Shown in pieces: positions 26,651 to 57,974 of a DNA stretch of 64,000 nucleotides. Under the pieces are notes generated by a model, which was not told where the DNA came from, ran no database searches, and was given only the letters and a program-made list of their open reading frames with translations. The position numbers were made by a program, and so were the translations under genes. This DNA is from a virus. Every line of letters begins with the position of its first letter. The stretch's first letter is position 1. The stretch is taken from the IMG/VR virus record IMGVR_UViG_3300033405_000004, positions 1 to 64,000 of that record; one strand, written 5' to 3'.

Positions 26651-27090
26651 CAGACGCGGCGCCTCAGCGCGGCGCGGGCGATCTTGCGCAGCGCCGGGAT
26701 GGTGCCGGGCGTGTCGTCCTTGCAGGCGGCGATTTCCTTCAAAGCTTTCTCCATCCGGTTCCGCGCCGGGATCAGCGCCACGCTGACCTCCAGGCCCCGC
26801 GCGTGGCACGCGGCCGCCAGGTCCTCGAAGCGGGTGCTCCCGTGGAACACGACGGGGATGGTGTGGTCAGCCTCTTCCTTTCTCGCCGGGTTGACGGCGG
26901 TGCGGTGCTTCCATTTGAGCTTCACTCGACAATGCTTCGCATTGCTGATCAGTTCTTTTTCGCTATGGACGCAGGCCATGAGATGGCCGAATCGGTTTCG
27001 GGTCGTCCATGAGTCTTTGAACGCAGGAACCGGGTCTTCGCCGGGGCGGTAGGCTGTCCATGTGTCGCCCTTGAAGATAGACTTTGCCAT
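26650..27090 (-). CDS. hypothetical protein (gene A, copy 1)
   Basis: C-terminal half homologous to the region within 30585-30955. Confidence 0.65.
   Translation of the reverse strand: MAKSIFKGDTWTAYRPGEDPVPAFKDSWTTRNRFGHLMACVHSEKELISNAKHCRVKLKWKHRTAVNPARKEEADHTIPVVFHGSTRFEDLAAACHARGLEVSVALIPARNRMEKALKEIAACKDDTPGTIPALRKIARAALRRRV
26687..26758 (+). repeat. direct repeat, copy 1 (copy 2 at 30591-30662)
   Basis: 71/72 nt identical by eye; weaker similarity extends ~100 nt further. Confidence 0.9.
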
Positions 27091-27159
27091 GCTGGGACGT
27101 TGTAGACAACGCTGACGGAGGTTCAAGCTTTTTATCATAAACTTTTTTTGTAAACAAGT

Positions 27160-27189
27160 TTGACATGGCGCCGTCGGCCAACCTAGCTT
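27160..27189 (+). promoter_or_regulatory. sigma70-like promoter of the Cas7-like gene
   Basis: TTGACA-18 nt-TAGCTT, preceded by TCATAAACTTTTTTT element. Confidence 0.6.
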
Positions 27190-27198
27190 CGCCTCGCC

Positions 27199-27882
27199 AT
27201 GAAGTTCAAAACTATCAAATTGAAGATTACGCTCATCGAACAGATGCTGGGCACCAAAGCGGCGAACAAGGACGTGTTCGCGGACTACATCGCCTCCAAG
27301 GCGCCTGACGACGACCTGCGAAAGCAGGAGCTTGACACCGCCGAGCACCGCGAGGAGGCGGGCACCACCGTGTTCCACCGCGACGCAGACGGCGCGCTCA
27401 TCATGTGGAACTACCAGTTCAAGGGCTTCCTCAAGGAGTCCGCCAACGTCATCCGGCAGACCATGTCCGGCGACGGCGAGGAGCCACCCGAGGCTGCGGC
27501 GGGGGCGGCGGCGGTGAAGAAGCCCCGCAAGCGCGGAACCGTCTGGGGCAACGCGAAGGCGAAGATCGACAATTTCCTGTTCGTGTCGCCCCGGCAGATC
27601 AAGCTCTTCGCGCCCGGCCGCGTCGTCGCGGCCAAAACCAGGCCGGACGGCGTCTGCGAACGCCCGCTCCGGGCCGAGACCCAGCAGGGCCCGCGGGTGA
27701 CCGTGGCGCGCTCCGAAGTCGTCGACCCCGGCACCTACTTCATCTGCGAGGTCAGCCTGGTCGAAGGCGGGCCGGTCACCGAGGAGATGGTCCTCCAGTG
27801 CCTCGACTACGGCGCCCTCAAGGGCCTCGGCCAGTGGCGCAACAGCGGCAAGGGCGCGTTCAGCTACCAGATCCTGGACTGA
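27199..27882 (+). CDS. stand-alone Cas7/RAMP-like RNA-binding protein
   Basis: beta1 IKLKITLIEQMLG; YQFKGFLKES helix; thumb ERPLRAETQQGPRVTVARSEVV; C-terminal Gly-rich loop LDYGALKGLGQWRNSGKGAF. Confidence 0.75.
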   Translation: MKFKTIKLKITLIEQMLGTKAANKDVFADYIASKAPDDDLRKQELDTAEHREEAGTTVFHRDADGALIMWNYQFKGFLKESANVIRQTMSGDGEEPPEAAAGAAAVKKPRKRGTVWGNAKAKIDNFLFVSPRQIKLFAPGRVVAAKTRPDGVCERPLRAETQQGPRVTVARSEVVDPGTYFICEVSLVEGGPVTEEMVLQCLDYGALKGLGQWRNSGKGAFSYQILD

Positions 27883-29220
27883 GCGGCGGCATGGTTAAGC
27901 ACTGCAAAGCAGAGTGTTGCATGGGCGATGTAGAGCACAGCAGAGTCTGCCACGCTGAGCAAAGGCGAAGTCGAGCACTGCATTGCAACGTGGAGCGGCG
28001 TGAAGGCGTTGTTCCGCAAAGTAGGGCGCAGGCGAGGCGTTTGCCTAGTGCTGCAGGGCATCGCGATGCGACGCATCGGTGTTGCGTAAGGCACGTCTAC
28101 GCCCGGTACCGCAGAGGCACAGCGCTGTTAAGCATCGTCGTGTGGAGCAAAGGCAAAGCAGAGCGAAGCGCTACGCGGCGCTGGCGCAGTGAAGCGGAGC
28201 GAGGCTGTAAGCAACGCTGGGGCTGGGTATCGCATCGCACCACGACGCTCCGCTCAGCTAAGGCCGTGCATAGTTACGCACCGCAGGGCTTCGCGATGGC
28301 CGAAGCAATGTTCAGCACCGCTCAGGCTGGGCACCGCAGCGTGGAGCTCGGCAGCGCGACGCGAAGGCACTGCAAAGTGTGGCCCAGTAGGGCACTGGCT
28401 AAGCGCATCACCGTAGAGCATAGTGGAGCGTTGTACGGGCGCTGCGGCGCCGCGCGAAGCGCCGTCTCGCTTCGCAAAGGCCCTGCGCCGTCCCGCACCG
28501 CGAAGCATCGCAAAGCATGGTGTTGGCGCAGCTGTGTGCGGAGATGCTCGGCGGGGTACAGCCCAGGCATCGTGTGGTCATGCGAAACGTCGCACTGTGC
28601 TAGCCAAGTAGGGCGCAGTGAAGCTCAGGCATCGTGGGGCAACGCCGGGCATCGCCAGGCATCGCGACGGCTAAGCAGCGCACAGGGCCGCTCCGCAAGG
28701 GGCATGGCTGCGCTCCGTCTAGTAATGCGTCGCATCGGCAGAGCCTCGTTAGGTGAGGCCAAGCTAGGCGCGGGCTTAGCTATGCGCAGTAGCGTGTGGC
28801 TTGGCTCGGCTCGGCAAGGGCGTAGCACTGCACCTCGTGGCAGCGCACGGCGAAGCGAAGGTGAAGCCGAGCACGGCGAAGCACAGCCTGGCATGGCAAG
28901 GCGCAGCGCTGTCGTGCGTAGGCCCCGCACTCGAAGCGAGGCTCCGGCAGCGAGTTGCTATGCACGGCAGGGCTAGAGTAACGCTGCGCGGAGCGAGGCG
29001 AAGGCTCGGCCGAGCACTGCGCAGCACAGCGATGCACGGGCCCTACCCGGCGGCCCCCGGCGGAGTGAGCGACGCGAAGGCAACGCGGGGCATAGCAATG
29101 CCACGGCAGGGCAGCGCGGAGACTGTTCAGCGAAGGCAAAGCACAGTGGAGCGCGGTGGTGCCAAGGCCGTTGTGTGGCTTCGTTTCGCGACGTGAAGTG
29201 GTGCGAAGCGTGGGCGCTGT
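27883..29220 (+). ncRNA. putative guide-RNA array with 5-nt GY-NNN periodicity
   Basis: e.g. GC ATG GT TAA GC ACT GC AAA GC AGA GT GTT GC ATG G; pattern persists ~1.34 kb; no codon bias; RNA function inferred. Confidence 0.75.
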
Positions 29221-29247
29221 GAAGGGCCGGCCTCAGGCCGGCCCTTC
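29221..29247 (+). terminator. perfect hairpin closing the array
   Basis: GAAGGGCCGGCCT-C-AGGCCGGCCCTTC, then CTGTTCTT. Confidence 0.7.
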
Positions 29248-29262
29248 CTGTTCTTATGGGGC

Positions 29263-29343
29263 GTGAAGAAGACCCGAACGGAGCGCGTCGATCAGGTCCT
29301 GGAGCAGGCCCTGAAGGGCGAGGACGTCGGATGCCGATGCTGA
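29263..29343 (+). pseudogene. duplicated 5' fragment of the large terminase gene
   Basis: MKKTRTERVDQVLEQALKGEDV versus TerL MKKTTRTERVDQVLEQALRGEDV; upstream GTTCTTA motif also retained. Confidence 0.85.
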
Positions 29344-29506
29344 AGACCAGCTTGGCCCCGCACTTGGGGCACGCCCAGGGGCTTTCCTCGTAGATGCCCA
29401 CGATTTGGCTCCAGGCGGGGAACTCGGCGCCGCAGACGCACTTCGTCAGCGGCAGGTGCTCGTCGTCGTTGCGCTGGAAGGACACCCTGTCGGTCACGTC
29501 GTTCAT
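29328..29506 (-). pseudogene. 3'-truncated Zn-ribbon protein
   Basis: CVCG...CPKCG; coding character stops at the terL-fragment junction. Confidence 0.55.
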
Positions 29507-29826
29507 GCGAGGAAGGTGTCGTGGAACCATTGGCGCAGGCTCCTGTGCGCCCCGGCCGGCGGCTTCGGGCGGCCGGTGGGCACCACGGGCCGCCATTCGC
29601 GCAGGTCGAGGGAGCAGTGGTCGGGCCACTTCACTGCCAGCGAGCAGTATTCCAGGAAGCGGGCGCACTTGGCGTGCTCGCGCGCCGACGCCACGGTCGA
29701 CGCCCAGTCTGCCGGCCGCTGGTGGGCGCAGGTGTCGCAGCACTTCACGGGCGAGTTGAGGTACGCCGGGCCGGCGGGGGGCCGGGGCCTGCCGTCGAGG
29801 TCGAACCTGCGGATGGGGTCGCTCAT
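29503..29826 (-). CDS. PIRRFDL-motif Cys-rich protein
   Basis: MSDPIRRFDLDG...CCDTCAH. Confidence 0.6.
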   Translation of the reverse strand: MSDPIRRFDLDGRPRPPAGPAYLNSPVKCCDTCAHQRPADWASTVASAREHAKCARFLEYCSLAVKWPDHCSLDLREWRPVVPTGRPKPPAGAHRSLRQWFHDTFLA

Positions 29827-30095: not shown

Positions 30096-30955
30096 GTCCA
30101 GGGTTCCTCGTGGTCGAGGGCGTTGTCGACTTCGGGCAGGCCGAGGGCCTCGCCCTTCTGGGCGAGCCAGATTTCATGGTAGCCCTGCTCGGTTGGGAAG
30201 CCGTAGGGGAACGCGAACGCGAGCTGCTCCGTCCCGATCAGGGCGTTCAGCCGGTGGTGGAGCACGTGGAGGGCGTGGGCCCACAGGACGACCTTGCCGG
30301 GCCGATCGCACATGCAGAGCACCAGCATCACGGCCGCCACGGACACCCGGGTCGTCGGCGAGCGCTCCGCCATGCGGCCGCAGAGGATGAGGAGGCTGGC
30401 GTCGTCCTTCATCGGGGCCAGCATCCCTTTCGCGGGGTCGGCCCAGTCGATTGGATTGGCGACTTCGCTGCCGTCGTTTTCCGCGATCGTCAGCCTGGCG
30501 AAGGTCTCGGTGAGTTTCCTGCTCATCGGTTCGCGGCTGGTCTCAGGGAGGTCGAGGATGGATTTGAGCGGGGGCACGTTCATCTTAGTCCGCAGCGCCG
30601 GGATGGTGCCAGGCGTGTCGTCCTTGCAGGCGGCGATTTCCTTCAAAGCTTTCTCCATCCGGGCCTGCCGCGGCGCCGGGACCAGCGTCGCGCGGATCTC
30701 CAGGCCCCGCGCGTGGCACGCGGCCACCAGGTCCTCGAACTTGGTGCCCCCGTGGAACGCGACGGGGACGGTGCGCGTGCCGCCCCTTGCCGCGGCGAGG
30801 TCGGGGGCGGCGGGGCGCAAGTACACGTCGGCGGGTCCGAACTGCGACCGGTCGCCGTCGCACGAAAGGCATGCCTCGGTGACGTGGAGGTCGCCGGCGC
30901 GGAACACCTCGTGGGGGTCGAGGCGGTGGTAGCTCACGGTCAGGGCGCTGGGCAT
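30083..30955 (-). CDS. apparent fusion of truncated gene A copy 2 to a second gene starting at 30583
   Basis: ...TPGTIPALR-TK-MNVPPLK...; junction at the edge of the 72-bp repeat. Confidence 0.6.
   Translation of the reverse strand: MPSALTVSYHRLDPHEVFRAGDLHVTEACLSCDGDRSQFGPADVYLRPAAPDLAAARGGTRTVPVAFHGGTKFEDLVAACHARGLEIRATLVPAPRQARMEKALKEIAACKDDTPGTIPALRTKMNVPPLKSILDLPETSREPMSRKLTETFARLTIAENDGSEVANPIDWADPAKGMLAPMKDDASLLILCGRMAERSPTTRVSVAAVMLVLCMCDRPGKVVLWAHALHVLHHRLNALIGTEQLAFAFPYGFPTEQGYHEIWLAQKGEALGLPEVDNALDHEEPWTWPQ
30591..30662 (+). repeat. direct repeat, copy 2
   Basis: matches 26687-26758. Confidence 0.9.
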
Positions 30956-30959
30956 GGGG

Positions 30960-31184
30960 TTACGATTTGCCGGCGCTCTTGGGGTCCTGCATCTCGTTGT
31001 GCAGGTTCACGCCGGGGTTGGTCACGGCGCCGTTGTTGCGGATGTCCGCCCAGGACATGGGGGTGGAGCCGTCCACGTGGAGCAGGAAGTTGATCTCGCC
31101 TGCGGGCAGCTCGGGGTGGTTCGTGTCGCGCAGGATCTTCTGCACGGCGTCGGCTATTTCACGCTTCTGTCGTACGGAGAACAT
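30960..31184 (-). CDS. hypothetical protein
   Basis: MFSVRQKREIADAVQKIL..., 74 aa. Confidence 0.7.
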   Translation of the reverse strand: MFSVRQKREIADAVQKILRDTNHPELPAGEINFLLHVDGSTPMSWADIRNNGAVTNPGVNLHNEMQDPKSAGKS

Positions 31185-31248
31185 GGCTTTAGGAAGTTGT
31201 AAACATTTTCCCCGAGGGCAAGTCTTTTCCTTCACCGTTCTTACTGGC

Positions 31249-33846
31249 GTGAAGAAGACGACCCGAACGGAGCGCGTCGACCAGGTCCTGGAGCAGGCCC
31301 TCCGGGGCGAGGACGTGGACCGGCTGATGGCGGGCCTCTCCGAGGGCGACAAGGAGCTGTTCCACCAGCTCGTGGCCCGGCTCCGCAAGGGCGGCGGCCC
31401 GGTGAGCGACGACCTCTGGCTCGTCGACTATACGCGCCGGCCCCCGACCATGGCCGAGTTCATCGAGGACCCGTACTGGATGGGCGACGTGCTCGTGCCG
31501 AGCGAGTTCAGCCGGGGCCTGTTCCCCACCTGGAGGGAGAAGCTCGTCAAGGACTTCGACATCGACAGCCGCGTGCACAACATCGTCATCACCGGGAGCC
31601 TCGCCATCGGCAAGTGCCACTACCACGGCTACGAGGTGCTCGGCTTCGACGGCGTGCCGGTGGCCGTCCAGCACGTGCGGCAGGGCGATTGGCTCATGGG
31701 GCCGGACTCCAGGCCGCGGCGGGTCGTGAGCGTCTGCAAGGGCGCCGGGCCGCTGTACCTGGTCAAGCCCCGCGACTTCCCCGCCTTCTGGGTCAACGGC
31801 GAGCACAAGCTCGTCGTCAGCGACGGCTTCGACTGGGCGACCATGACGCCGGAGCAGTGGCTGGCGCAGCCGCTCAGGCGCGACTGGCAGCTCAGGCGGC
31901 CGCCCGCGGTCACCTTCAACTCCCGCCGGACCGCGCTGGCCTGGCACCGGGCGCACGGGCGCGGGAAGGACGAGGTCGTCAGGCGGACGGTGGTGCTGGA
32001 GCGCACGGCCAGCCCGTTCACCGTCGAGCCGGCTGGGCATACCGGCGACTACTACGGGTTCACGCTGGAGCGCCTCGACCGCACGGACGGGTCGGTGGAG
32101 GACGGCGCCTTCCTGGGCAACACCCTGGCCCGCGGCGCCCACCCCTCGCTCTACCTCGGCGCGGACGGCGTCGTCCACCACAACACCTACATCACCGGCG
32201 TCATCTTCCTGTACCGCGTCGTCCTGGCGTCCCTCCTGCGCTACCCGGAGCGGTTCTTCGGCCTGGGCAAGGGTAGCCGCATCTACTACGTCCTGCTCTC
32301 GATCACGCGGGCCGCCGTGAGCGACACCATCTTCGGCGACGTCCAGAACTTCATGGCCCAGAGCCCCTACTTCCTGGAGGAGTGCCACTTCAACCCCGAG
32401 CGGAAGTACGCCGACTTCCGGGTCGGCCTGGGGCGGGGCCTGTTCATCACCGCCGGCTCCAAGGGCTGGCACGTCATCGGCCGCAACACCATGGGCGTTG
32501 CCCTCGACGAGGGCAACTGGCGCCTGGAGGCCAACCCCGACCAGCGCGCCTACGACCTGTACGGCGAGGTGCGCCAGCGCATCAAGGGCCGCTTCCAGCA
32601 GGTCACCGGCTACCTCCCCGCCATCAGCATCCTCGCCTCCTCGGCGCGCGACGAGTCCGCCTTCACCGAGACGGTCATCAACGAGATCAACCAGGCCGCC
32701 AACCCGGCCGTCGAGCTCGTCTACCGCCACGCCAGCTACGAGATCCGCGAGGGTGAGCTGCGCCGGGGCCAGCGGTGGTTCAGGGTCATGTACGGCCTCA
32801 AGAACATCGAGCCGGCCATCCTCCAGGGCTTCTACACGAAGGAGGGCGCCCAGGTGCAGGGGCCGTTCGAGGAGGCGCCGCACGGCTCCCAGACCAAGCT
32901 TGTCCCCGAGGACTTCCTGCCGGAGTTCCGCCGCAACATGAAGCTCTCGCTGCAGGGCATCTGCGGCGTGTCCACGGGCGGCTCCCACCTTTTCTTCGGC
33001 AGCCCCGTCGAGCTGGAGACCGCCGTCAAGACCGGCGAGGCCAAGGGAGTCAGGAACCCCGCCGACGTGGAGCACATCCCCATCTCCGTCGAGGACACCC
33101 AGGAGGTCTGGGACTACCTCAAGCACGAGCGCTTCCTCACCCGCCGCTCCGGCTCCATCGTCCCCCTGCGCGACCCCGACGCGCCCCGCTTCGCCCACCT
33201 CGACATGGCCACCGAGTCCATCGCCGGCGTGGCGATCTGCCACCCGGTCGGCAAGGTCGAGGTGTCCAACGTCTTCAAGCCGGAGATCCCCTTCCAGCTC
33301 TTCAGCGAGTACCGCGTCGTCGCCGAGTACGACTTCATCCTCGCCATCGTCTCCGGCAAGACCAAGCCGATCAGCTTCGAGAAGGTCCTGCGCTTCTTCT
33401 TCTGGCTGCGGGAGCGGTGCGGCTTCCGCTTCGAGATGATCAGCGCCGACCAGTACCAGTCGGTGATGCCCCTCCAGGTCTTCGAGACCCGCGGCTTCAA
33501 GGTGCGGAACGTGTCCGTGGACCGGACCAAGCTGCCCTACTATGCCTGGCGGGCCGCGTTCACCGAGCGGCGCGTCTGGCTCTACCGGCACGGCCTGTTC
33601 ATGCGCGAGGCCGAGCAGCTTATCGACGGCCCGGACAAGGTGGACCACCGGCCCGAGGGCTCGAAGGACCTCACCGATGCCGCCTGCGGTGCCTACTACA
33701 ACCTCCTCGAAAGCGAATACGCGACCGGCGCGGTCTCCGCCGGGGCGTCCCCGGTGATGACGCCCGACATGGAGGAGGAGAAGCCCCCGATCGACATGAT
33801 GCCGCCCCCGCCGAAGCGCGAGGCGCCGCCGGTGTACACCGTCTGA
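31249..33846 (+). CDS. terL: terminase large subunit (intein-containing)
   Basis: Walker A ITGSLAIGK|T, Walker B VALDE, coupling motif LASS, nuclease HLDMA / SADQYQS / DH..GSKDLTDA; GTG start 31249. Confidence 0.9.
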   Translation: MKKTTRTERVDQVLEQALRGEDVDRLMAGLSEGDKELFHQLVARLRKGGGPVSDDLWLVDYTRRPPTMAEFIEDPYWMGDVLVPSEFSRGLFPTWREKLVKDFDIDSRVHNIVITGSLAIGKCHYHGYEVLGFDGVPVAVQHVRQGDWLMGPDSRPRRVVSVCKGAGPLYLVKPRDFPAFWVNGEHKLVVSDGFDWATMTPEQWLAQPLRRDWQLRRPPAVTFNSRRTALAWHRAHGRGKDEVVRRTVVLERTASPFTVEPAGHTGDYYGFTLERLDRTDGSVEDGAFLGNTLARGAHPSLYLGADGVVHHNTYITGVIFLYRVVLASLLRYPERFFGLGKGSRIYYVLLSITRAAVSDTIFGDVQNFMAQSPYFLEECHFNPERKYADFRVGLGRGLFITAGSKGWHVIGRNTMGVALDEGNWRLEANPDQRAYDLYGEVRQRIKGRFQQVTGYLPAISILASSARDESAFTETVINEINQAANPAVELVYRHASYEIREGELRRGQRWFRVMYGLKNIEPAILQGFYTKEGAQVQGPFEEAPHGSQTKLVPEDFLPEFRRNMKLSLQGICGVSTGGSHLFFGSPVELETAVKTGEAKGVRNPADVEHIPISVEDTQEVWDYLKHERFLTRRSGSIVPLRDPDAPRFAHLDMATESIAGVAICHPVGKVEVSNVFKPEIPFQLFSEYRVVAEYDFILAIVSGKTKPISFEKVLRFFFWLRERCGFRFEMISADQYQSVMPLQVFETRGFKVRNVSVDRTKLPYYAWRAAFTERRVWLYRHGLFMREAEQLIDGPDKVDHRPEGSKDLTDAACGAYYNLLESEYATGAVSAGASPVMTPDMEEEKPPIDMMPPPPKREAPPVYTV
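31615..32184 (+). mobile_element. mini-intein (190 aa, no endonuclease) in the TerL P-loop
   Basis: N-terminal CHYHG, block B VNGEH, block F YYGFTL, C-terminal VVHHN followed by Thr. Confidence 0.9.
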
Positions 33847-38783: not shown

Positions 38784-38812
38784 CGTTCTTATGAGAACAG
38801 ATTACTTAGACG

Positions 38813-41164
38813 ATGGACCTCCCGAAGTTCTCGCTCATCTACACCTCGGCCCGCCCGCACCTGATCGCCGACGTCGTGCGGCGGTGGAAGGGCCGCGCCG
38901 CCCGCCCGGCCGACGCCCGCTTCGCCATCGCGGTGGACGACGAGGCCGCCCGCGCGGTCGCCGCCGGGACGGCGGAGGACGTGGTCGTGAACGGGGGGCC
39001 CAAGAACTGCGTGGCCGGCTGGAACGCCGCCGCCAAGCTCGCCGAGCGCCAGGGCCTGGGTGACGTGCTCATCGCCGTGGCCGACGACTTCGACGTGCCG
39101 GAGCGCTGGGACGACCTTCTGGCGGGCGTGGCCGCCCCCGGCTGGTGGCTCCAGGACTTCGCCGTCCGCGTCTACGACGGCTACAACTCCGACCTCTGCA
39201 CGCTCGGCATCGTGACCGCCCGCCGCTACCGCCGCCGCGGCTACCTCTTCTACCCCGACTACGAGTCGATCTATTGCTTTCCGCCCGACACGCCTATCCT
39301 GATGGCCAACCATACTCTTAAACCTATTGGTGACGTTGTCCCCGGCGATGTCGTGGTGGGTTCGGTTCGCAGGATTGGGTCGCGGGGCACTGGCAAGCAA
39401 AGGCGGGAGTTTCTTCAGCCGTCCCGAGTGCTGGAGGTCCATCGTAAGCGCGACAGGCTGGTGAGGCTTACGCTGAAGTCCGGTAAGGTGATCCTGTGCA
39501 CTCCTGACCATGTCTGGGCCTACTATGGGGATACCCGCGTGTATTTGCGAAACCAAGCTGGAACCGTGTTGCGTGGACAGGGGGGCCACCCGCGTCAGAA
39601 GGCCGACGGCCAGCTTTTGTACGGAACTCCGAGGATCGGGCGTCGGTTGGTGAAGGTTCTGGACATGCCCCCTTCGCCGCCAATGGACGATCAATCGGTT
39701 CGGGAACTGGGTTGGCTCGCTGGGATTTATGACGGCGAGGGGTGCTTTCCGACCATAACCCAGTCGTTCGACAAGAATCCTGAGGTGTGCAAGGAGCTGG
39801 AGCGCGTGCTGACTCGGTTGGGTTTCAGTTTCACTGTGAAAGGTTATCGTCGGAAATGGAGGGGCAAGCTGATCGAGCAGCACGGTTACTGCATCACTGG
39901 CGGGAGGCCGGAGTACTTGAAGTTTCTGTCGTGGGTCCGGCCCGTGAGAAGCTTCAAGCGAGCGGTGTCCAAGAGAATGTTCACATCCAGGTTTGGGGCG
40001 CCAGACGAGATCGTCAGCATCGAATCGTATGTCGATGACAAGGAAGTCTACTGCCTCTCCACGGAGACCCAAAACTACGTGGCGGACGGTTATCTGAGCC
40101 ACAACAGCGACACCGAGCTCACCTACTCGGCGGCCTACGAGAAGAGGCTCATCTCGGCCCCCCGGCTCCTCTTCGAGCACAGGCACCCCGACTGCGGCAA
40201 GCGCGCCCGGGACGCCGTCGACGAGGCCCACTCCTCCAAGGGCCGCTGGCAGCGCGGGGAGATGCTGTTCAAGTTCCGCATGAGCCAGAACTTCCCCATC
40301 GACGTGGAGCCGCCCGCTGAGCTGGACCGGTTCGCCCTCTACATGCAGGCCATCCGCGACGACTTCTGCCTCTACGACGTGGCCCGGCGCATCGTCGACG
40401 AGGGGAGGGCCGGCCCCGCGCCGGTCGGGCGCGTCTACCTGATGTGCCCCGACGAGTGGTGGTCGGGGCGGCCCCGCTCCCCCGCCGAGATGGCCGAGGT
40501 TCAGGCGGCCGCCAACCGGCTGTGCGCCGAGGGCGTCGACGCCGTGCTGGTCGACCAGCGCGTCGGGCCCGCCCGCGCCTTCTTCCGCACCCGGATCGAC
40601 GTAGAGACCGCCATGCGCAACGAGGCCCTCGACCGGATCTACGCCGACGGGTTCGCCCACGTCATCATCGCCGACGGCGACGAGTTCTGGCGGCGCGGCT
40701 TCTACGCCCGCCTCGCCGAGTGCGTCCAGACCACCGCCGGCGTCACCGCCGGCCTCTACACGGGCATGACGCCGGTCGTGGGCTACCCGGGCTACCCGGT
40801 GGAGGGCTCCACCGACAAGGCGACCGTCTACATCGCCGCGCCCCACCACCTGGTGGACTGCCGCACCGTGGCGGGCAGCCGGGCCGAGCTGCCGGGCCAC
40901 GACGTGATCCACTTCACCGCCACCCGCCGCACCTACGAGGAGGTCGTCCAGAAGCACCGCGAGAGCGGCCACTACGACGACCCCAATTATGACTTCGAGG
41001 GTTGGATCGCCAACACCCTCCCGAAGATCAAGCCTGGCTTCAGGAACGCCCACATGTACAGGCACTATCAGGTCTGGCCGCTGATCCGGGCCTGGAGGCC
41101 CGAGGAGCTGGCCGACCTGCCCGCCTGCGTGCTGCCGTACCTTGGGAATGGAACGGCCAGTTAA
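38813..41164 (+). CDS. two-domain GT-A/GT2-like glycosyltransferase with intein
   Basis: CVAGWNAAA, VADDF (DxD-like), YESIY|SDTEL; second domain IIADGDEFW. Confidence 0.8.
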   Translation: MDLPKFSLIYTSARPHLIADVVRRWKGRAARPADARFAIAVDDEAARAVAAGTAEDVVVNGGPKNCVAGWNAAAKLAERQGLGDVLIAVADDFDVPERWDDLLAGVAAPGWWLQDFAVRVYDGYNSDLCTLGIVTARRYRRRGYLFYPDYESIYCFPPDTPILMANHTLKPIGDVVPGDVVVGSVRRIGSRGTGKQRREFLQPSRVLEVHRKRDRLVRLTLKSGKVILCTPDHVWAYYGDTRVYLRNQAGTVLRGQGGHPRQKADGQLLYGTPRIGRRLVKVLDMPPSPPMDDQSVRELGWLAGIYDGEGCFPTITQSFDKNPEVCKELERVLTRLGFSFTVKGYRRKWRGKLIEQHGYCITGGRPEYLKFLSWVRPVRSFKRAVSKRMFTSRFGAPDEIVSIESYVDDKEVYCLSTETQNYVADGYLSHNSDTELTYSAAYEKRLISAPRLLFEHRHPDCGKRARDAVDEAHSSKGRWQRGEMLFKFRMSQNFPIDVEPPAELDRFALYMQAIRDDFCLYDVARRIVDEGRAGPAPVGRVYLMCPDEWWSGRPRSPAEMAEVQAAANRLCAEGVDAVLVDQRVGPARAFFRTRIDVETAMRNEALDRIYADGFAHVIIADGDEFWRRGFYARLAECVQTTAGVTAGLYTGMTPVVGYPGYPVEGSTDKATVYIAAPHHLVDCRTVAGSRAELPGHDVIHFTATRRTYEEVVQKHRESGHYDDPNYDFEGWIANTLPKIKPGFRNAHMYRHYQVWPLIRAWRPEELADLPACVLPYLGNGTAS
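39275..40105 (+). mobile_element. intein (277 aa) with LAGLIDADG homing endonuclease motif
   Basis: CFPPDTPIL, CTPDH, WLAGIYDGEG, VYCLST..NYVADGYLSHN followed by Ser; lower GC. Confidence 0.92.
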
Positions 41165-57897: not shown

Positions 57898-57974
57898 GTC
57901 CTCGTAGCTCAATCTTGGACGAGCGACGGACTCTAAATCCGGGGATGCGGGTTCGACCCCCGCCGAGGGCACCA
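57898..57974 (+). tRNA. amber suppressor tRNA (anticodon CUA)
   Basis: acceptor GTCCTCG/CGAGGGC, D stem GCTC/GAGC, anticodon loop CT-CTA-AA (57933-57935), T arm GCGGG-TTCGACC-CCCGC, encoded ACCA. Confidence 0.9.

Follow-up and report, generated by a model that had tools for sequence, protein, structure and literature searches.

A probable VIPR locus with a tail-less, G-punctuated guide array in an uncultivated phage

We analysed a window of 64,000 nucleotides (the whole stretch of DNA considered here) from the genome of an uncultivated phage. A gene encoding a small protein with a Cas7-like fold is followed by an array of pentamers on the same strand, which begins 1 nt past the stop codon of the gene (27199-27882), and then by a hairpin resembling an intrinsic terminator. 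The features are listed below; here and throughout the text, a slash marks the boundary between two blocks of the array.

26867..27198, + strand: leader, an intergenic and presumed promoter region
27199..27882, + strand: vipr-like gene; encodes a 227-aa protein that has the Cas7-like RAMP fold, one RRM and, at the C-terminus, the G-loop GLGQWRNSGKGAF
27883..29220, + strand: G-Y-N-N-N pentamer array of about 30 blocks, corresponding to the YNNNG register of the preprint cited below
27965..28005, + strand: typical block of the commonest kind; eight pentamers and a terminal G, 41 nt, ending GTGAA-G/GC
28861..28921, + strand: longest clean block; 12 pentamers and a G
29040..29079, + strand: degenerate block; the phase-0 G is missing in several units, and there is one -1 slip
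29221..29257, + strand: intrinsic-terminator-like hairpin (29221-29247; 12 pairs, 10 of them G-C) with a T-rich tail
29265..29327, + strand: copy of the start of terL; 63 nt, 92% identity to 31254-31316

The leader is less GC-rich than the window (0.51-0.54 vs. 0.68). A search for the sigma-70 consensus found none in the leader, and the promoter is for this reason only presumed. The vipr-like gene has GC contents of 0.63/0.43/0.92 at the three codon positions, typical for genes of the 157-kb phage. Pfam and PHROG searches assigned its product to no family. The AF2 model of the protein, built on 43 relatives (pLDDT 84), consists of one RRM core with a long thumb beta-hairpin at residues 151-175 and a C-terminal glycine-rich loop. 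The best structural match of the model is Csm3 (6ae2_B, Z 12.2), the top 23 matches all are Cas7/RAMP chains, and Foldseek finds the type VII Cas7 (E 2e-8). In metagenomes the protein has more than 1500 close homologues, and there are 2241 clusters of relatives at 50% identity. Tandem fusions also occur: P0241 (458 aa) and P0245 (432 aa) have two Vipr-like domains each.

Judging by its sequence, the hairpin downstream of the array may terminate a transcription unit formed by the gene and the array. The cassette is flanked by partial copies that are 88-93% identical to the neighbouring locus: beside the copy of the terL start, the fragment 26687-26863 resembles 30591-30773, from the gene upstream of terL. 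These flanking duplicates suggest that the cassette was acquired by recombination, with local duplication. The terL gene itself, which probably contains an intein, lies 1.7 kb downstream of the array.

Several other features of the window were recorded. Intein signatures below the Pfam cut-off were observed in the terL-like ORF 30967-33846 (Hom_end_hint) and in a 784-aa protein encoded at 38810-41164 (Intein_splicing). A possible small zinc-ribbon ORF, 29247-29509 on the minus strand, converges on the array terminator and its frame remains open into the array; it has only weak Pfam matches and a GC3 of 0.76. ARAGORN predicts a tRNA with the CUA (amber-reading) anticodon at 57898-57974 (+).

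The array is clearly periodic. Base identity rises from a background of approximately 0.25 to 0.43 at lag 5, and there is an increase at lags 21 and 26 too, as expected for a period of 5 nt interrupted by occasional +1 slips. In the 157-kb genome, the period-5 threshold is passed by 82% of 100-nt windows inside the tract and by 0.08% outside it. The array was parsed by a five-phase Viterbi procedure with equal penalties for insertions and deletions. Among the 224 complete pentamers thus obtained, phase 0 is occupied by G (0.94) and phase 1 by C or T (0.98), and the three N positions are variable with a GC content of about 50%. The base preceding the pentamer G is itself G in only about 25% of units. 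The RNA fold of the array is no more stable than that of shuffled sequence (z = +0.66), and a search of Rfam with the array matched no family.

A first-pass annotation, made by a model from the sequence alone, had argued that the blocks it parsed do not share strings of triplets, and thus that the array is not a simple slippage satellite. Indeed, searches for tandem and direct repeats revealed no long repeats and no long strings in common between blocks, and Tandem Repeats Finder reported only two short period-10 stretches in the array.

In public gene calls, the same region appears as a protein-coding gene of 361-380 aa. The underlying plus-strand frame has no stop between 27891 and 28976 and has been annotated as a gene on near-identical contigs (L094:2065-3150). 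However, the GC content of the array is flat over the codon positions (0.63/0.66/0.65, against 0.63/0.43/0.92 in real genes of the phage), which argues that the array is not coding; moreover, the period is five rather than three, and the ORF has no Pfam match. The probability of a protein-coding function is therefore negligible. Phantom ORFs of this kind, such as 27891-28976 (+), may hide similar arrays in databases.

The array is divided into blocks by shifts of the register. The parse contains 45 shifts, of which 34 are +1, 7 are -1 and 4 are +2, and the excess of +1 over -1 is highly significant (binomial p = 2.5e-5). All but three of the 34 +1 shifts can be written as G/GY, that is, as one G inserted before a G-Y (31 cases). 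Thus the shifts are not random, and the consistent extra G noticed at the first pass is a property of the array. The distances between adjacent junctions are 41 nt (eight cases), 36 nt (four), and 26, 31 and 46 nt (two each), 19 of the 30 intervals having a length of exactly 5n+1 nt. The commonest block is 41 nt long and consists of eight pentamers and the G; about 30 blocks are present overall. Intervals that are off by one, or longer, are explained by internal indels, by loss of a junction, or by the degenerate block 29040-29079. The latter accounts for the interruption that had been placed near 29040-29065.

The four blocks that had been parsed by hand (27889-27924, 27965-28005, 28326-28366 and 28439-28479) were recovered exactly by the Viterbi parse. 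The same annotation had described blocks of five to nine pentamers, each followed by one extra G; the punctuation is as described, and the size range has to be widened, as the parse yields blocks of 5-12 pentamers. The longest of them, 28861-28921, may consist of two guides fused after the loss of the junction G following a GCGAA pentamer.

The last pentamer of a block is also distinctive. The ending NAA-G/G is seen at 10 of 31 junctions, whereas of the 195 internal pentamers only 20 end in AA (p = 0.0025 by Fisher's test), in agreement with the preference for NAAG/GC at junctions claimed earlier. Related triplets open three of the blocks, namely GAA-CGA-ACT at 27965, GAA-CGA-ACG at 28861 and TCG-CGA-ACT at 29004, as if these were guides aimed at variants of one site.

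The association of the gene and the array is not specific to this phage. In all 83 relatives examined, in viral and Logan contigs, a co-oriented period-5 array abuts the gene. It may lie downstream of the gene, upstream of it, or on both sides, and it is always on the strand of the gene. The window array, with approximately 30 guides, is one of the larger arrays in this set of relatives. Among named phages, a relative is carried only by four gut phage records, which are unannotated. The nearest genomic homologue, on a Planctomycetales MAG contig, is 52% identical, which is insufficient to name a host.

The punctuation is conserved as well. Family-wide, +1 shifts outnumber -1 shifts by 1019 to 44, and 593 of 699 blocks (85%) are exactly 5n+1 nt long, the commonest length being 31 nt. 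The terminal pentamer has the consensus GCAAH and is followed by the extra G. The locus L015 has 28 near-perfect G-punctuated blocks.

Comparison of related arrays demonstrates different rates of substitution per aligned site by phase: 0.016 for G, 0.034 for Y, and 0.063-0.067 for N, the N positions thus evolving about four times faster than G. At a larger scale, whole blocks are gained, lost or replaced, and the order of the remaining blocks is kept. The comparison of block gain and loss between related phages, proposed in the first-pass annotation, therefore yielded insertion, loss and replacement of entire blocks. Hence the blocks are units of evolution, much like the spacers of CRISPR arrays. 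The window array was also found in four other samples at 99.9-100% identity, and these copies are too similar for any block gain or loss to be visible.

The strict strand specificity of the motif, which is always co-oriented with the RAMP gene, argues against the possibility that the array is an element acting as DNA (an array of binding sites, an origin, a packaging signal or a curvature element) and not an RNA gene. Its position next to terL, between duplicated flanks, would suit such an element. However, the terminator is directly 3' of the array, and RAMP proteins bind RNA. A role at the DNA level thus seems extremely improbable.

A system with similar components has been described. VIPR, a CRISPR-related system, first appeared in 2026 preprints (bioRxiv 10.64898/2026.04.26.720920). 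It is a system of RNA-guided DNA recognition and is proposed to be older than CRISPR. It consists of a lone ancestral RAMP protein, Vipr, found mostly in phages, and of vrRNAs formed by tandem pentamers, in which a conserved GGY alternates with a variable NN. The NN pairs with double-stranded DNA, and every third base of the target is skipped. The listed variants of the repeat include YNNNG, and tail-less "staggered" arrays are mentioned (10.64898/2026.04.26.720920).

The window locus resembles the staggered VIPR in the following traits: a lone small RAMP gene of a phage, an adjacent co-oriented pentamer array, conserved G and Y with hypervariable N, and the absence of tails between guides, so that the end of a unit abuts the start of the next one. 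In the window, the guides abut without tails or ribozymes at 31 G/GY junctions. Thus the locus is likely to be a VIPR system of this 157-kb, 68% GC phage, in which guides would be measured out block by block. The cassette would comprise one promoter region, the vipr-like gene encoding a lone Cas7-like RAMP protein, a vrRNA array with multiple guides and no tails, and a terminator. The first-pass annotation described the feature correctly, and its reading of the array was close to the best current model; it did not name the system, which had already been described as VIPR.

Since the system and its tail-less punctuated architecture are already in print, the locus is not new as a discovery. The punctuation by one extra G producing GGY, the GCAAH terminal pentamer and the 5n+1 rule were measured here and are not quoted from the preprint. 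The legend to its fig. [quoted passage not shown]

According to the preprint, vap genes are typical of VIPR loci and not universal; they are named for types II-VII only, six for seven types (10.64898/2026.04.26.720920), and hence a type without vap seems to exist. Apart from vipr itself, no neighbouring ORF of the window is common to the loci of the relatives, and no conserved vap-like gene was found beside the array. As a guess, the window locus might belong to type I.

The best characterized point of comparison is the type II VIPR of Escherichia phage SUSP1, which comprises the Vipr protein ALH47069.1, vap1 and four vrRNAs; we located this exemplar locus by its GGYNN pattern. In the structure of the SUSP1 protein, D177 reads G1, W178 and R138 read G2, and R179 reads Y3, the pyrimidine-only pocket excluding purines (10.64898/2026.04.26.720927). 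The similarity between the SUSP1 and window proteins is detectable only at the profile-to-profile level. A direct scan of the SUSP1 genome with the profile of the window family produced no match. Comparison by hhalign with the SUSP1 Vipr family, whose alignment includes a marine-sediment protein of the preprint's seed kind (SUSP1 / X1U2U4 clade), gave E 3e-5 with a probability of 73%; the aligned part, 104 columns, is confined to the C-terminal half and places the two G-loops opposite each other. This supports, though not strongly, homology of the two families at the sequence level. The G-loop GxGQWR of the window family aligns with GxGDWR of SUSP1, so that the counterparts of the reading residues are Q212, W213 and R214. 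W and R do not vary within the window family, and Q hardly does; the replacement of the SUSP1 D by Q would fit a fixed G-Y motif instead of G-G-Y.

The two proteins have in common the RAMP fold, the W-R pair of the G-loop and the phage location, and in both systems one protomer per pentamer is expected. On the other hand, each SUSP1 guide has 9-16 GGYNN units and ends in a pseudoknot tail of about 40 nt, and the SUSP1 locus includes a vap gene, whereas the window array has a fixed GY, guides of 5-12 units, no tails and no vap. Since the units lack a fixed GGY and no tail lies between the blocks, the locus does not have the type II (SUSP1-like) architecture.

The closest structural matches of the window protein are the backbone proteins of class 1 CRISPR systems: Csm3, Cmr4 and the type VII Cas7 (Z up to 12.2). 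The Cas7 proteins form a periodic filament on the guide RNA with bases flipped out by the thumb, and the same is proposed for Vipr. In CRISPR systems, by contrast, the period is 6 nt and runs along a contiguous spacer, the arrays are of the repeat-spacer type, capping is by Cas6 or Cas5, and many cas genes are present; none of these traits was seen around the window array. A class 1 CRISPR-Cas locus was rejected as a candidate: the period is 5 nt, there are no repeats of about 25-40 nt and no repeat-spacer array around the vipr locus, and the flanking ORFs have no matches to Cas families of Pfam.

The grammar of the array suggests how guides could be measured out. By homology with SUSP1, each Vipr protomer would grip one pentamer via the conserved G-Y, using W213 and R214, and the variable bases would stay exposed for the recognition of foreign DNA, presumably that of rival mobile elements. 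A guide would then correspond to one block of 5-12 pentamers. After the extra G, the register is displaced by +1. A filament extending in the upstream register would read the next unit as G-G, placing a purine in the pyrimidine pocket; one extending in the downstream register would read the unit before the junction as C-A-A-H-G, which contains no G-Y. As neither register offers a valid G-Y at the junction, the filament could not cross it in either direction, and each block would become a separate ribonucleoprotein. The conservation of the A-rich last pentamer fits the need to avoid a stray G-Y near the break. The junction GGY recreates the canonical VIPR motif, and may serve as the start of assembly. 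It is reasonable to regard the junction as a filament stop, and plausible that the blocks are separate guides ended by the register break.

It had been claimed at the first pass that the array comprises roughly 30 discrete guides of 15-27 information bases each. The division into block units is supported by the family-wide +1 G grammar, the turnover of whole blocks and the Cas7-like neighbour, whereas the number of information bases depends on the assumption that all three N positions pair. By analogy with the solved Vipr-RNA complex, only two N positions per unit may do so: by homology, N3 occupies the place of the first GGY base, a G that is flipped out in SUSP1. On the other hand, the GC content of N3 is about 50%, as compared to the GC3 of 92% in genes of the phage, so that N3 does not look neutral, and its substitution rate is close to those of N1 and N2. 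These two observations are the basis for assigning information to N3 in a more specific joint reading, in which the boundaries are set by the one-base register break alone and N3 is informative, making the code unlike the published one, in which two bases pair and one is skipped. In the same joint reading, filaments would start and stop assembling at the junction GGY, and neither a ribozyme nor a hairpin nor a dedicated nuclease would take part. We consider this combination rather unlikely.

The N triplets were also considered as in-frame codons, and this candidate was rejected: there are 6 stop triplets against 4.9 expected, and the GC content is about 0.5 at all three positions. The heterogeneity of positional GC between blocks is marginal (p = 0.05).

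The blocks might also remain joined. The same VIPR components would then produce one long, never cut transcript carrying about 30 Vipr filaments, the extra G breaking only the register of the protein. Neither a ribozyme nor a Cas6-like gene is present in the locus, and the junctions lack a conserved hairpin; a search for hammerhead and other ribozymes in 18 related loci found none. In addition, the small-RNA sequencing reported in the preprint confirmed only the ribozyme-interspersed and single-vrRNA architectures, not the staggered one (10.64898/2026.04.26.720920). However, thirty tethered guides would be awkward for a search of DNA, and the legend to fig. S18 speaks of 'individual processed vrRNAs'. 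Thus an uncut array is unlikely, and we prefer separate guides, whose ends may be trimmed at the junctions.

Targets of 139 blocks were sought in 0.78 Mb of related loci and in the genome of the phage itself under 11 pairing rules (NNN, NNNx, NNNxx, N1N2x, N2N3x, YNNN and others). The real guides gave no better matches than guides with shuffled unit order. When only the own genome was searched, under four rules, no more than 2 of 19 blocks had p <= 0.05, as expected by chance. In particular, the block 27889-27924, which another first-pass remark had proposed to mimic a promoter of the phage itself, never reached p <= 0.05 under any rule, and this proposal is not supported. The lack of matches to the own genome agrees with the VIPR preprint (10.64898/2026.04.26.720920).

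No match was obtained in seven scans for exact patterns, run on public collections of viral, genome and metagenome sequences. The N1N2x pattern was used for a 9-unit gut-phage block, the 12-unit block of the window, an 11-unit block of L018 and a 10-unit block of L015. The block starting at 28629 was scanned as contiguous NNN in genome and metagenome contigs, and as NNNx in viral contigs. Exact matching is a blunt instrument, and thus these seven blank scans say little.

If the array were a decoy, soaking up the phage's own Vipr protein or that of a rival instead of providing working guides, the absence of targets for all window blocks would be expected. However, a sponge needs neither hypervariable N positions nor a spacer-like turnover of blocks, and in every relative the array and its own vipr gene form one predicted transcription unit. 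The decoy function is therefore very improbable, and the array is best considered as a set of guides.

The locus, together with the clusters of its relatives, provides a clean and quantified statement of the staggered architecture: guides are 5n+1 nt long, start at the GGY created by one extra G, and tend to end with GCAAH. This grammar and the proposed mechanism for measuring out guides are what the analysis adds to the published description. Once the pairing rule for G-Y pentamers is known, a phage with about 30 guides would be a rich source of natural targets.

Some observations concern other loci. One block is conserved in many gut-phage arrays (L050, L055, L060, L063, L064, L070, L082 and others); it reads roughly G/GCTAT GGATG CAAGG CGTAG CTTTG ATAAG CAAA, and could be a guide retained in many phages, or else have a structural role. 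The FuFi-1 RNA (RF02986, 116 bits) was found in two gut-phage loci, at a distance of about 1 kb from the vipr-like gene: L023:2859-3073 and L025:2611-2825 (-). Finally, the 157-kb genome contains a sole period-5 spot besides the array, outside the window at C1:106338-106400. It is about 60 nt long and is made of G-Y-N-N-N-like units (GTTGT GTTGT GTTGT GCTGG ...); it may represent either a simple repeat or a solo vrRNA.
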